Positions 39,737-48,867 of a stretch of 64,000 bases of DNA are shown here, piece after piece; position 1 is the stretch's first letter, and each line of letters opens with the position of its first letter. The position numbers and the translations under genes are program-made. The notes under the pieces are model-generated. The model did no database searches and was not told the origin of the DNA. It saw only the letters and a program-made list of their open reading frames with translations. The DNA comes from an uncultured Pseudomonadota bacterium (lineage in GTDB: Bacteria; Babelota; Babeliae; Babelales; RVW-14): assembly GCA_964446935.1 (NCBI GenBank), contig CAYUQI010000002.1:194-64193 (forward strand), written 5' to 3'.

Positions 39737-42400
39737 TTAAGCAGATACAGCTTCAAGCGGCTCTTTTTCTCGCTGTGCTATGCCAATAGGTCCTTGGACT
39801 GGCGCATAATGCGCAGCTTGTTTTTGCTTTTCTGCTTCTCGTTTGAGCCGTGCTTTTTCAATGGCTTCAGAGACCTTAAAATAAGGGTCTTCTTGTAGGT
39901 TGGCCGACTTTGGTCGGTTTCTGCCATACGTGTAGTCATCTATTGGTCTTAAAACACCTTGAGCAGCATCTGATAATTTTTGCTTAATTGTCTGATGTGA
40001 TGGTCGGAAAAACCATCGTTGTATTGGATCTCGGTCATGAATGTACATATCATTTTTCATAATCTGATATTTAGCATAATCAAGTTTAAGTTGGGTATAT
40101 TCATCAGGAGCGCCCTCAAAGCGTGGTTTGATAATACTTGGGCGAATGAATACGTAGAGGTTTTCCTCTGTTTTCGATTTTGCTTTAGTTTTAAACAAGT
40201 TTCCCAGAATTGGAATATCGCCAAGAATTGGAGTTTTATAAACATCATCAGTTAGTTTACTTTTGGTTAATCCACCAAGGACCAAAACTTCACCAGCGCC
40301 CAAACATGCTTTTGTAACCAGTTTTCTTGTTGATTTGGAAGCGGTATCCGAAGGGTTTACTTGTTGAAATTCATCGACCGATATATCGGTTGACAGGTCA
40401 ATGGTACCCGTCAAGTTGATAGTAGGTGTAAGATCAATTTTAATTTCAGCATCCAAATCTTCTTTTTGAACGACTGGCTGGATGTTTTTGGTATCTACTT
40501 TGCCGCTGACTCTAAATGTTGTTTTGACCGAAACCGTACATTTTTGATTGTTGTTGGCGATAACATATGGTTGTGAAATAACTTGAGAATTTTTGATATT
40601 TAACGTTGCCTTGATGATTGACCAGATGTTTTGATTCGTTCGTGGATCTGCGCGTCCTAAGGTAAAGTAACTCCCGTGTTCGTTACCAATAAGCTGATTA
40701 GCGGGATCTAAAAAATCAATGTATGGGTTTGAAAATGGATTTTTGCTTTCTTCAGTGCCACTTTTAGCTATCCCTGATGTTAGATTTTGGAATTCAACAT
40801 TGACATTATGAGCGAGCGGATTGCCTTTGACGTTAAACATCTGTACCCCGAGTGAACGATCATTTTGCATATTCACATCAACAATCATGACCTCGATAGC
40901 TACTTGTGGTTGTGGTTTGTCAAGTTTATCAATAAAGGTCTCAAGCCGTTTCCAGTCTTCTCGGTTACAAGCAATAATAAGACGATTACCGCCGCCGCGT
41001 TTGGCTGTTTCGGATCCAGCTGTATCATCTTGTTCTGCGCTGATAACAACATCTTCAAAAACCTTGTAACCACCTTCCATGACCAATGCCTTTTCTGTTG
41101 TTCCTTTTGGTGGTTTGATGATATCAACAAGAATAGGTTGAATATCTTGTGCACGAACATAACGCAGCTCCTTGACATGGAGGCGGGAATCAGCACTTTC
41201 GATAGGGACATCAAGATATTTGTAGATAAAGCCTTTGATTTTTTCGATATTCTTTTTAGTGCCTAGGAGAATAAGTGAGTTTTGTGTTGGTTCAGCAAGG
41301 ATTTTTGTCGCTGAAGAAAAATAAGAAGCTTCTTTTGATTGAAACGATGAGAAACGAATAATCTTTTCGTCTTTTTCTCCAACAATATCGGTAAACAGTT
41401 TTTGAATATCATCAGCATTAGCCCATGTGAGTGAAATTACCTCAATAGCTTCACGAAGCCCGCCATCGTCGAGTTCTTTGACGATTTTCATGGCTGCTTT
41501 GATGTTTAAACATTGATCTTTGATGATACAGACGTTCAAATCCTTGTTATCAACAATATTTTTTTCATCAATCATTTTGCTTAAAATACTATGTGCGGCG
41601 TCAACCTTTATATTCTTTAAAAAATAGACGTATCGGACAACAAGATCGCTATCGGGAAGATTTTCTGGCTCTGTTCCGGTTCCTGATGAGTACACAGGAA
41701 GTGGTTCTTGTCCGTTGTTTTGGCTTGGAACAACGCGGTGCAGTGCCCCGACTTTAACAATGGTGAACCCATTCATTTCAAGAAGGGTAAGCATTACGTT
41801 CCATGCTCGTTCGAGAGTTAGCGGGTTACGCGTTGTCAATGAAACCTTAGCCGTCTCGAGGTCTTTATGAGGAATAATATTAAACTTTTTTTGCTCTGAG
41901 AGGTAATTAAGCACACTTCCAAGTGAAGCATTATCAAAATTGAGATAAATATTTGCATCATCCTGTGTTTCTTGTGGCACTAAATCGCCGACGTTAATCG
42001 TTGTTGAAGGCATAACTCCATTTTGTGGCGGAAGTGCCGGTTGCGGGGTTGCTGGTTGTTGTTGCTCTGGTTTGCTTGGCGTGACAGGAGTTGTTGTCGA
42101 TGATTCAGTTGGCGTTGCTGGTTGCAGTGGTGTAGAAAATTCAGGCATTGAGGCTATTGCGGATTCGGCTGGTGGCATTGCAGCAGAAGGCGGCACAGCA
42201 GTGGGTGCTGTTGCGACTGTTTCTGCAGCAGGGGTAGCCGTTGTTAGCTGAGGGGCTGGGGTAGCTGTGACTGATGGCACCGGGGCTGAAGTGGTAGGCA
42301 TAAGTGGCATGAGTGCCATGGTGGTGTTTATCCACCATGGCGCAAACAGAAAACATAAGAGCATTATAAGTGATCTACTATATTTCATAGCCGTTATCAT
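39737..42400 (-). CDS. secretin, GspD-like (copy 2)
   Basis: N0-like IYLNFDNASLGSVLNYLSEQKKFNIIP..LEMNGFTIV. Secretin core VLVLGGLTKSK..YKTPILGDIPILGNLFK. Signal peptide and a Pro/Thr/Ala-rich spacer. Confidence 0.85.
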   Translation of the reverse strand: MITAMKYSRSLIMLLCFLFAPWWINTTMALMPLMPTTSAPVPSVTATPAPQLTTATPAAETVATAPTAVPPSAAMPPAESAIASMPEFSTPLQPATPTESSTTTPVTPSKPEQQQPATPQPALPPQNGVMPSTTINVGDLVPQETQDDANIYLNFDNASLGSVLNYLSEQKKFNIIPHKDLETAKVSLTTRNPLTLERAWNVMLTLLEMNGFTIVKVGALHRVVPSQNNGQEPLPVYSSGTGTEPENLPDSDLVVRYVYFLKNIKVDAAHSILSKMIDEKNIVDNKDLNVCIIKDQCLNIKAAMKIVKELDDGGLREAIEVISLTWANADDIQKLFTDIVGEKDEKIIRFSSFQSKEASYFSSATKILAEPTQNSLILLGTKKNIEKIKGFIYKYLDVPIESADSRLHVKELRYVRAQDIQPILVDIIKPPKGTTEKALVMEGGYKVFEDVVISAEQDDTAGSETAKRGGGNRLIIACNREDWKRLETFIDKLDKPQPQVAIEVMIVDVNMQNDRSLGVQMFNVKGNPLAHNVNVEFQNLTSGIAKSGTEESKNPFSNPYIDFLDPANQLIGNEHGSYFTLGRADPRTNQNIWSIIKATLNIKNSQVISQPYVIANNNQKCTVSVKTTFRVSGKVDTKNIQPVVQKEDLDAEIKIDLTPTINLTGTIDLSTDISVDEFQQVNPSDTASKSTRKLVTKACLGAGEVLVLGGLTKSKLTDDVYKTPILGDIPILGNLFKTKAKSKTEENLYVFIRPSIIKPRFEGAPDEYTQLKLDYAKYQIMKNDMYIHDRDPIQRWFFRPSHQTIKQKLSDAAQGVLRPIDDYTYGRNRPKSANLQEDPYFKVSEAIEKARLKREAEKQKQAAHYAPVQGPIGIAQREKEPLEAVSA

Positions 42401-42403
42401 AGT

Positions 42404-42952
42404 TTAATCCAGCATCGATTTATATTTTTTCGTTGCAAGCATGATGTCAAATCCTATTTTTTGGCCGCCCTCGTTGCGAATTTTTAATTCCTTGATATAG
42501 ACGATTTCTTTTTTATCAAGCGTATCAAGTATTTTTACGAGTTTTTCAGTTGTTTGTCCTTTGAATGATGCAGGCAATGTAATTTCATCAAATCGTTCAT
42601 TGACGGTTTCGGCACGAGCATCCCATCCTGTTTCTGGAGTGATATTTTGTTCCCGATAAAATTGTTCAAAAAAGCCCTTCATAGTAAAATCTTTGTTTTT
42701 ATCTAAAATTTCCTTAAATCGAACCTCGTCCTTAATCATTTTTCTGTTATTAGCAATCATTTTAAAGGAACGTTCAGTGAGTGTTTGAAGTTGTTTAATG
42801 TGCATAGCAAGATCATACTTTTTTTGATAAATAAAGTAGGTAACAGAGGCTGCAACAAGTGCTACTGAACCAAGAAAAAGAAGAATGTGCCGCTGAAACT
42901 GTTTTTGATTAAGATTTTGAAGATAACGAGCGAGTTTATTAAGTGCTTCCAT
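42404..42952 (-). CDS. small bitopic GspM/PilO-like assembly protein
   Basis: Single TM (ILLFLGSVALVAASVTYFIY) followed by a ~120-aa soluble domain. Position is right after the GspL/PilM-like gene. Confidence 0.4.
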   Translation of the reverse strand: MEALNKLARYLQNLNQKQFQRHILLFLGSVALVAASVTYFIYQKKYDLAMHIKQLQTLTERSFKMIANNRKMIKDEVRFKEILDKNKDFTMKGFFEQFYREQNITPETGWDARAETVNERFDEITLPASFKGQTTEKLVKILDTLDKKEIVYIKELKIRNEGGQKIGFDIMLATKKYKSMLD

Positions 42953-47667: not shown

Positions 47668-47697
47668 AACCCTTTCTTCCCCTTGCTCAACATTACA

Positions 47698-48867
47698 TTA
47701 CCTGTTGCGATTTTGGAAACGTTGTTGCAAGTTTTCCAATATTCGTTTGCGAATATCCATCATTGCTTGTTGTTGCCGTTGTTGTTCCAATGGATGCACT
47801 TGGTTAAAGTCTCGTTGCGTTTGTTCCCTTTGTTGTAACCTACTGAGTTTGAATGGTTCTTCTGTTGTTGGTTGTGCTCCCGCCTGTTCCGCCATTTTGA
47901 TACCAGGGAACAACGACTTTCTTGGCCGCTCAATTTTAACAAGTTTGTACGATAAAGAAATATCTTTGTTTGCACGTTTAATACCAAGCGTGACAACATC
48001 ATTCAAATTCAATTGTGTAAGAGCATCAAAAGCTTTTATACGATTTTTTGGTTCTGCAAGATCAATGTTGTTGATCGATAAGAGTATATCATTTTCTAAA
48101 AGACCAAGCGATTTAGGAGCAACGTCTTGTGTTGGTTTACCAAGTCTTATACCGATTGGTTTGCCGTCGTGATATGCGGTGCCAATGACTGCTAATTGTT
48201 CAATAAAATTTCCAAGAGTTTCATATTCTTTAGCAAAAGCGTCTGGATCAAGATTAAATGTTTGATCATTAATTTTTTTTACGATGTATTTCCATTTTTC
48301 TTCCGGGGTTGCTTGTGCGGCGAGTTCGTTTTTTCGTAGATAAAAAATCTCTTGTTGGCCATTGGCGCGTAAAATAATAATTCGGTTGGTTGCTATTTTA
48401 ATGATTTGCCCATCTTTTATCTTTTCCCCTAAATGGTACATCCCTTCCTTGTTTGTTTCATCAGCAATCATGGCAACATTTTGAAATTCATTGCCGCTTG
48501 CAATGACTCCTCGTAACGTTATGTTGAGGGGAGTGATGAACTCTTGTTTTTTAGGTTCTGGAGGGGTAGGTATGACAGGAGGTTTTGGTTCTGGTATAGG
48601 GGTGACGAGACTTTGTTGGACAGCTTTAACTTCTTGGGCTATGTATGTCCCAAACATGTCATCTTGATAAATTTTTTCCCAGGAAGGAGCTGTTTTAGGA
48701 AGATCCTTTTTTTTTTCGACCTCGGGAGCTAGGAGAGATATGGGGGCCTTCCATGGTGCTGGTTCTATTTTTAAAAGCTCATATGCTGCAAAAATGCATA
48801 CAGACATAATAAGTAGTGAGCTATTTATCAACCACAAATCTTGTTTCATGATAAACAATCCCTTCAT
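47698..48867 (-). CDS. GspC-like protein (TM + HR-like segment + PDZ)
   Basis: TM near the N-terminus. ITLRGVIASG..MYHLGEKIKDGQIIKIATNRIIILRANGQQE resembles the GspC HR region. PDZ-like GIRLGK..KSLGLLENDILLSINNIDL. Lies directly upstream of a secretin. Confidence 0.6.
   Translation of the reverse strand: MKGLFIMKQDLWLINSSLLIMSVCIFAAYELLKIEPAPWKAPISLLAPEVEKKKDLPKTAPSWEKIYQDDMFGTYIAQEVKAVQQSLVTPIPEPKPPVIPTPPEPKKQEFITPLNITLRGVIASGNEFQNVAMIADETNKEGMYHLGEKIKDGQIIKIATNRIIILRANGQQEIFYLRKNELAAQATPEEKWKYIVKKINDQTFNLDPDAFAKEYETLGNFIEQLAVIGTAYHDGKPIGIRLGKPTQDVAPKSLGLLENDILLSINNIDLAEPKNRIKAFDALTQLNLNDVVTLGIKRANKDISLSYKLVKIERPRKSLFPGIKMAEQAGAQPTTEEPFKLSRLQQREQTQRDFNQVHPLEQQRQQQAMMDIRKRILENLQQRFQNRNR

Follow-up and report, generated by a model that had tools for sequence, protein, structure and literature searches.

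The 64-kb window analysed here (64,000 nucleotides of contig CAYUQI010000002.1, assembly GCA_964446935.1, a genome of the GTDB lineage Babelota/Babelales) carries on its minus strand, at 39737-48867, five genes for parts of a secretion machine. In the direction of transcription they encode a GspC-like protein (47698-48867, 389 aa), a first secretin, D1 (44662-47667, 1001 aa), an L protein of GspL architecture in which PilM and PilN parts appear to be fused (42956-44665, 569 aa), a small bitopic M protein with a predicted PilO/GspM fold (42404-42952, 182 aa) and a second secretin, D2 (39737-42400, 887 aa). All five run in one direction with little space between them, the junctions measuring +30, -4, +3 and +3 nt along the order C-D1-L-M-D2, and the stop/start overlaps or 3-nt gaps suggest that translation of the cluster genes may be coupled. 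These genes had been described before in a reading of the bare DNA (referred to as the sequence-only reading), and coordinates, strand, lengths and junctions were all reproduced when the open reading frames (ORFs) were checked. The gene identities assigned there hold as well, with amendments for the L and M proteins. The Pfam domain matches are far beyond chance.

Products of the five genes

The GspC-like protein consists of an N-terminal transmembrane helix, a homology region (HR) domain, a PDZ domain and a charged C-terminal tail. It passes the cut-off of the Pfam family T2SSC (PF11356; 1.3e-10, 41.7 bits, cut-off 27), and it matches NCBIfam GspC_delta with an E-value of 8.7e-24, yet under the equivalog cut-off of that model. 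A profile built from 40 orthologues aligns over HR and PDZ with OutC in the structure of the Klebsiella type II secretion system (T2SS) outer-membrane complex (chain 6hcg_e, 3e-9) and matches the GspC HR domain 7oio (9e-7) and also GspC/PulC PDZ domains. Transmembrane helix, HR and PDZ domain, by which GspC is recognized, are all present, and we regard the 389-aa protein as a true GspC-type connector.

Both secretins share one architecture. D1 comprises a signal peptide, a Pro/Thr/Ala-rich linker, the domains N0-N1-N2-N3, the secretin domain, an S-like region and a low-complexity tail, and D2 is organized in the same way. Pfam reports N0, three copies of Secretin_N and Secretin (E 4e-34) for D1 and N0, Secretin_N and Secretin (E 2e-31) for D2. 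The scores for PF00263 Secretin (118 bits for D1 and 109 bits for D2, cut-off 27.5) place both proteins in the secretin superfamily, and PF21305 (N0) and PF03958 exceed their cut-offs in each of them. With phmmer, end-to-end alignments from N0 to the S region were obtained for D1 and D2 with the solved GspD structures 5wln, 5zdh, 5wq7 and 5wq8 (1e-26 to 1e-43), the best being those of D1 to 5wln (9e-43) and of D2 to 5zdh (7e-39). Matches to solved PilQ structures were much weaker than those to GspD for both proteins (1e-13 to 3e-15 for D2, 1e-11 to 3e-6 for D1). The PilQ subfamily model TIGR02515 gave 141 and 151 bits for D1 and D2, respectively, at a cut-off of 284, and an AMIN domain was reported by Pfam in neither of them. 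On these comparisons D1 and D2 are best classed as divergent GspD-type secretins that are not equivalogs by the NCBI criterion.

Between signal peptide and N0, D1 and D2 each contain a stretch of ~150 residues (about aa 25-170) that is Pro/Thr/Ala-rich, of low complexity and unconserved, and the C-terminal tail of D1 (850-1001) has a composition like this linker. The sizes of the orthologues range from 742 to 1118 aa, which is mostly explained by length changes in the linker and tail regions. These Pro/Thr/Ala-rich stretches might serve as spacers, carry glycosylation sites or touch the cell wall. A conserved segment behind the secretin domain, DPIxxWFFxP, is also common to D1 and D2. When D1/D2 pairs of the same genome were compared by region, the similarity was highest in the short N0-N1 link (0.42) and in N0 (0.41), against 0.35 in the secretin core. 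N0 is the GspC-binding domain in known T2SS, and its similarity in the two copies would fit a need of both to bind one GspC-like HR domain; the difference between the regions is small.

The L protein matches Pfam PilM_2 (2.5e-24, 86 bits, cut-off 27) and, more weakly, T2SSL (PF05134; 3.3e-7, 30.4 bits, cut-off 25.5), and stays below the cut-off of the PilM model TIGR01175 of NCBIfam (64.5 bits, cut-off 133). Its AlphaFold2 (AF2) model, with a mean predicted local distance difference test score (pLDDT) of 85, has a cytoplasmic actin-like domain, a long transmembrane/coiled-coil helix and a periplasmic alpha/beta domain. Foldseek matched the modelled cytoplasmic domain to PilM (5eou/2ych) with a TM-score of 0.78 and E-values of 1e-22 to 1e-18, whereas EpsL/GspL followed far behind (~1e-9, TM-score 0.5-0.6). 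The sequence-only reading had named this protein a GspL/PilM-N type. The GspL architecture stands, and the assignment is amended to a full PilM-type domain joined to a PilN-like part; judged from the model, the most fitting description of L is a PilM-PilN fusion that has the architecture of GspL.

The M protein, in contrast, could not be assigned by sequence. The protein of the window has no Pfam match, the profile of its orthologues found none among the PDB sequences, and T2SSM was touched by only 1/45 orthologues in Pfam, at 0.004. The AF2 model (pLDDT 78) shows a transmembrane helix, a coiled coil and an alpha-beta-beta-alpha-beta-beta (ferredoxin-like) domain, and the top Foldseek matches of this model are PilO (3jc8_Oa; 2rjz, root-mean-square deviation 2.4; 5uvr), EpsM (1uv7, TM-score 0.74) and Amuc_1100. 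The earlier label GspM/PilO-like is thus kept on the predicted fold and finds no counterpart in any sequence family. Since L combines a PilM-type domain with a PilN-like part and M resembles PilO in its predicted fold, the cluster is a mosaic of T2SS and type IVa pilus (T4aP). Its head is like gspC-gspD, and its tail, pilM(N)-pilO-secretin, is similar to pilMNOPQ.

Conservation, ancestry and partner genes

An alignment-based conservation scan with one genome per GTDB species gave 50 loci, all from Dependentiae-type metagenome-assembled genomes (MAGs). Wherever the contig was long enough, the genes follow the order C-D1-L-M-D2 on one strand (48 other species-level Dependentiae genomes), and this synteny persists down to 28% identity of the L protein. 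The cluster is a fixed, phylum-wide operon of the Dependentiae and no peculiarity of a single genome. Homologues of L numbered at least 120, from metagenomes, and all taxon-specific names among them are Dependentiae, Babeliales or TM6, in line with a Dependentiae origin of the window. The records of L007, L011, L016, L017, L019, L021, L024, L030, L039, L041, L043, L048 and L049 are titled 'uncultured Pseudomonadota bacterium'; on GTDB representative MAGs with a Dependentiae-type operon such titles are likely a taxonomic mislabel.

D1 and D2 are both full length in 36 genomes across the phylum. In four MAGs one of the secretin genes is broken into two ORFs without runs of N, namely D1 in L027 (7225-10004) and L053 (7729-10001) and D2 in L034 (12259-14695) and L049 (12278-14714). 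At least one of these splits falls at a homopolymer run, which is typical of MAG assembly errors. Most likely the splits are assembly frameshifts, the alternative being pseudogenisation in single lineages. Relatives that keep one secretin while the second copy decays, a pattern that the sequence-only reading had named as one that would speak against it, are not what the 36 genomes with two full-length copies and the rare splits show.

Aligned with each other, D1 and D2 have 34% identity over 872 residues (E 1e-148). Their history was followed in neighbour-joining trees of 689 columns with eight proteobacterial outgroups in all; most relatives in these comparisons are MAGs. The orthologues of D1 and D2 form separate clades, with bootstrap values of 92% (D1) and 100% (D2) without the two deepest lineages and of 68% (D1) and 25% (D2) when these are included, and the five proteobacterial GspD sequences always lie outside of both. 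For a wider tree E. coli HofQ, a Ralstonia PilQ and Yersinia YscC were added (294 shared core columns, 40 replicates). Here D1 and D2 were monophyletic versus GspD, PilQ/HofQ and YscC in 40/40 replicates, and a grouping of D2 with PilQ occurred in 0/40. The position as sister clades outside of GspD, PilQ and YscC, together with the pairwise identity, bears out the earlier proposal that the two secretins are diverged paralogues. Two other origins were ruled out. This tree speaks against a descent of D2 from PilQ, and a phage-derived secretin of pIV type disagrees with the complete GspD architecture (N0-N3) and with the location in a conserved core-genome setting. The Aeromonas caviae record that provided the ExeD outgroup (L054, NZ_AP026896.1) is 4.94 Mb long and nearly unannotated; it is filed as plasmid pKAM479_3 in PLSDB and is evidently the chromosome.

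The mean identity is 0.52 within D1, 0.45 within D2, 0.33 between D1 and D2 and ~0.22 to the outgroups. The duplication is ancient and dates from the time when the sampled Dependentiae radiated or from earlier, and both copies are maintained. By the same comparisons both appear to be under purifying selection, and neither is a PilQ by descent. In a mirror-tree analysis the correlation between D1 and D2 was the highest of all gene pairs of the cluster (raw r 0.90, and a residual of 0.62 once the background was corrected for), which is a weak hint, since the pairwise distances depend on one another and paralogues are subject to common constraints.

Genes for GspE/PilB, GspF/PilC or (pseudo)pilins were not detected in the window when 50 of its 51 non-nested ORFs of at least 120 aa were scanned with Pfam (the ORF at 63567-63941, 124 aa, was omitted), and a six-frame motif scan of the window found neither a GspE-type Walker A box nor a prepilin leader. 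Both scans agree with the sequence-only reading, which had seen none of these genes in the 64 kb. In 48 related genomes, too, the motif scan found no GspE-type ATPase or prepilin up to a distance of 10 kb from the cluster. A Walker A match in the relative L012 was rejected as GspE, the protein being a REC-AAA+ regulator, and five prepilin-motif matches in related loci were spurious short ORFs on the opposite strand. A complete co-localised T2SS locus (gspD, E, F, G and minor pseudopilins) occurs neither in the window nor within 10 kb of the cluster in the 48 relatives, and over that distance these relatives likewise lack the full gsp operon that might have stood just outside of the window.

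The relatives carry such genes elsewhere. For Babela/TM6SC1 the COG table of PMC4378268 gives the counts PulE 2/2, PulF 2/2, PulO 1/1, PilM 1/1, PulD 3/2, PulG 3/0, PilV 2/0 and PilE 1/1. The Babela gene table has PilV at about 58 kb, a protein with a PilB N-terminal domain shortly before 140 kb, a prepilin peptidase shortly before 302 kb and one PulF at about 518 kb. The platform gene pulF (GspF family) was traced in three Dependentiae genomes, Babela massiliensis and two Dependentiae-like contigs (L059 10001-11200, L060 10001-11164 and L061 10001-11206). It stands solitary among housekeeping genes, directly 3' of a small PF1765-like (DUF167) gene in 3/3 cases, and no ATPase or pilin gene is nearby. 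At least some machine genes are dispersed in a conserved manner. Because relatives carry motor genes elsewhere, the absence of these genes in cis is normal for the phylum and no proof of a motorless machine.

Neighbouring genes and other features of the window

Upstream of the GspC-like gene lies the gene of a MoxR-type AAA+ ATPase (48939-49922, minus strand; Pfam AAA_3 6.5e-67). It adjoins the GspC-like gene in 33/36 Dependentiae loci with 64-82% identity, a conservation that far exceeds that of the secretion genes; a gene for a VWA partner was not seen. A function of MoxR as chaperone for the assembly of secretin or scaffold is conceivable, or the arrangement may be mere conserved synteny. 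The 71-nt gap between the MoxR and GspC-like genes contains a sigma-70-like sequence, TTGACA-18-TATCTT (48876-48905, minus strand), that matches 10/12 consensus positions and is among the best of the region. The total of such sites in the region equals the shuffle expectation, that is, they are no commoner than chance, and this site is therefore a promoter candidate only.

Next to MoxR, and located upstream of it in 23/36 related loci, is the gene of a response regulator with REC and AAA+ domains (NtrX/NtrC-like; 49949-51301, minus strand; Pfam Response_reg and Sigma54_activ_2). Its match to NCBIfam NtrX (2e-65) is under the cut-off, and Pfam matches merely parts of the sigma-54 interaction domain. 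With the GTG start as called the gene overlaps the MlaF-like gene by 44 nt, and the true start may lie further downstream. It is possible that this protein regulates the secretion operon. Further upstream, TIM-SecG-MlaE-MlaF are found in most loci.

The window has a GC content of ~39% and contains at least four ankyrin-repeat proteins as well as genes for nucleotide salvage and transport; this composition and gene content fit the Dependentiae, intracellular parasites of protists. The four ankyrin-repeat proteins (14675-15664, minus; 35116-35982, plus; 37848-38999, minus; 57517-58980, plus) are typical of the expanded putative effector repertoires of the Dependentiae and likely candidates for cargo of the secretion machine.

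Several other genes of the window were identified. A gene for tmRNA, predicted by ARAGORN at 29150-29523 on the minus strand, has the tag peptide DDFGHSQAAYVA. A LigD-type primase-polymerase domain protein (24-1244, plus) retains an N-terminal remnant of the LigD 3'-phosphoesterase domain and may be part of a split or reduced ligase D of non-homologous end joining. A fusion of a glycoside hydrolase family 3 (GH3) domain with the exo-beta-N-acetylmuramidase NamZ (888 aa, 19917-22583, plus) suggests peptidoglycan recycling, and a protein of the MscS family of mechanosensitive channels (24720-28298, plus) is unusually long with 1192 aa.

A proposed scaffold with two secretins

Compared with the canonical T2SS (Klebsiella Pul, Vibrio Eps, pO157 Etp), the Dependentiae operon likewise has a gene for GspC (HR and PDZ) directly 5' of that for GspD (N0-N3, secretin, S), and an L-type bitopic protein with a cytoplasmic actin-like domain that is followed by a small bitopic ferredoxin-like protein. 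In contrast to these systems E to K are not in the operon, pulF as traced in relatives is solitary, and a second GspD paralogue follows M. The L domain is of full PilM type, whereas that of GspL is reduced, and both secretins carry long Pro/Thr-rich linkers in front of N0 and miss the equivalog cut-offs. With pilMNOPQ (hofMNOPQ in E. coli) the operon shares the order PilM(-N), PilO, secretin in L-M-D2, and the predicted folds of L and M are nearest to PilM and PilO. However, PilM and PilN are fused in the Dependentiae, a PilP lipoprotein is lacking and the HR domain comes from the GspC-like protein, and the secretin is of GspD type with N0-N3, without AMIN and unrelated to PilQ by descent. As the sequence-only reading had held, the layout differs from both canonical gspC-M and canonical pilMNOPQ.

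Similarity was also noticed to the pilus-like cluster Amuc_1098-1102 of Akkermansia, which we take to have one secretin and no GspC-like gene. L matches the family of the PilM-like Amuc_1101 with 4e-17 (62 bits, cut-off 650), D1 and D2 match that of Amuc_1098 with 45-55 bits (cut-off 750), and the M model resembles Amuc_1100. All scores are far under the family cut-offs, and this likeness is a lead only. A precedent is known from Pseudomonas aeruginosa, where the Xcp T2SS and the orphan secretin XqhA provide two GspD-family secretins for one platform, as alternative homo-oligomeric channels. XqhA is encoded by an unlinked orphan gene and acts as a weak backup; it is not an obligately co-transcribed partner that is conserved across a phylum.

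The duplicated gspD itself, whose prior documentation for this lineage the earlier reading had named, together with a full gsp operon just outside of the window, as refuting it, is on record. According to Yeoh et al. 2016 (PMC4776705), all TM6 genomes contain two copies of gspD and pilQ is absent, and one copy may functionally replace pilQ, which is termed 'an open question'; the same text states that no pili were seen on Babela. In cultivated relatives, analyses from 2015 (Pagnier et al.), 2016 (Yeoh et al.) and 2019 (Deeg et al.) detected the T2SS as the sole secretion system. The 'T2SS with two gspD' of these papers concerns the same genes in the same lineage. The passages covered give gene counts, and no earlier description seems to exist of the fixed C-D1-L-M-D2 operon, the single C/L/M set and the history of the secretins as sister paralogues. 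The folds assigned to L and M and the conservation of the MoxR neighbour are likewise results of this analysis that those passages do not contain.

We consider it very probable that the five genes code for the scaffold with which the Dependentiae T2SS/type IV filament machine spans the envelope. By analogy to T2SS and T4aP, the HR domain of the single GspC-like protein would dock on the N0 ring of a secretin, while the PilMN fusion and the PilO-like protein would form an inner-membrane platform. This platform would recruit a GspE/PilB ATPase, GspF/PilC and (pseudo)pilins matured by prepilin peptidase, all encoded in trans, and a pseudopilus would then expel folded proteins, exported by Sec, through the secretin. 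Hydrolases and ankyrin-repeat effectors are likely cargo in these parasites. For the two secretins, a shared scaffold with alternative homo-oligomeric channels of D1 or D2 is the explanation we favour overall, with some confidence. The chances are about even that D1 and D2 each build their own homo-oligomeric channel and dock alternately on the same C/L/M scaffold. The two types of channel may pair with the two PulE/PulF sets of Babela and TM6SC1, and possibly one channel serves secretion and the other a fibre, different cargo or another life stage.

Several points weigh against this explanation. Neither secretin reaches the GspD equivalog model TIGR02517 (310.8 bits for D1 and 294.1 bits for D2, cut-off 351.35), and the GspC-like protein is under the NCBIfam equivalog cut-offs (84.8 vs 150 and 61.1 vs 101.6 bits). 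The presence of GspE, GspF and GspG in the source genome we infer from relatives, and separate homo-oligomers of D1 and D2 would be the default taken over from known secretins. A joint complex would account no less well for the strict operon linkage that D1 and D2 show in every species and for their strong rate covariation, and the version in which one channel serves a pilus is weakened by the absence of observed pili on Babela, as reported in PMC4776705.

Such a joint complex, in which D1 and D2 would form one outer-membrane assembly on the single scaffold, either as a hetero-oligomeric ring or as two coaxial or stacked rings, is the heteromeric or dual-pore possibility raised in the sequence-only reading; it is unlikely in our view, and the hints in its favour are weak. 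Its genes were never separated in 48 species, while other machine genes do not lie near the cluster and pulF is solitary; the possible coupling of translation, the mirror-tree correlation, which is highest for D1-D2, and the lineage-specific features common to both (the Pro/Thr-rich pre-N0 linker and DPIxxWFFxP) point in the same direction. Against it, known T2SS secretins are 15-mers, in which two subunits cannot alternate, and we know of no heteromeric secretin; a phrase search of the literature, the matches of which were not studied in depth, gave no precedent. At ~33% identity the subunit interfaces have diverged, each paralogue keeps a complete stand-alone GspD architecture, and rate covariation of paralogues is possible from shared constraints without contact.

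More doubtful still is a division into two machines, where one paralogue is the channel of a T2SS and the other stands in for PilQ of a type IV pilus, the idea raised by Yeoh et al. 2016 (PMC4776705). The cluster can be divided accordingly into C-D1 as gspCD-like head and L-M-D2 as pilM(N)-pilO-pilQ-like tail, with L of PilM type and M of PilO type by predicted fold, D2 sits where pilQ follows pilMNO(P) (compare hofMNOPQ), and D2 matches solved PilQ somewhat better than D1 does. The two PulE and two PulF listed for Babela and TM6SC1 and the PilV, PilE and PulG pilins listed for Babela would agree with a second machine. However, D2 is a GspD duplicate by descent (D1 with D2 in 40/40 and D2 with PilQ in 0/40 replicates) in which Pfam gave no AMIN domain, a single PilM/N/O set and a single GspC/PilP-like connector are available for both secretins, and PMC4776705 reports no pili on Babela. 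This division also overlaps largely with the alternative channels favoured here and differs in naming the pilus as the second function. A second secretin that is merely redundant or in decay and has no function of its own is very improbable: the genes split in four MAGs would fit it, whereas the conservation of both copies essentially excludes it, as 36 genomes from across the phylum have both at full length with similar within-clade conservation (0.52 and 0.45), the splits are rare, hit either paralogue and fall at least once at a homopolymer run, and reduced genomes shed dispensable genes fast.

The Dependentiae, whose genomes are reduced, live as obligate parasites of protists and are widespread. 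Signal peptides are found on a very large share of the proteome (44% in Chromulinavorax), ankyrin-repeat effectors included, and the published genome analyses make this machine the only dedicated outer-membrane route of the phylum. The operon is the hallmark secretion operon of the Dependentiae and forms a variant of its own within the T2SS/type IV filament family; the two gspD copies per TM6 genome had previously been reported as a number without explanation. That two sister secretins have kept their fixed order around one PilMN/PilO pair throughout the phylum is a natural experiment in the diversification or combination of secretins on one inner-membrane platform. Since Babela and Chromulinavorax grow in co-culture with their hosts, the question is open to experiment. 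A joint complex, if true, would be the first heteromeric secretin, would change the view of secretins as strictly homo-oligomeric and would explain why D1 and D2 stayed locked in one operon while other machine genes lie elsewhere. If instead the two secretins form alternative channels, as we favour, the operon would be the clearest case of one T2SS/type IV pilus scaffold serving two outer-membrane gates.

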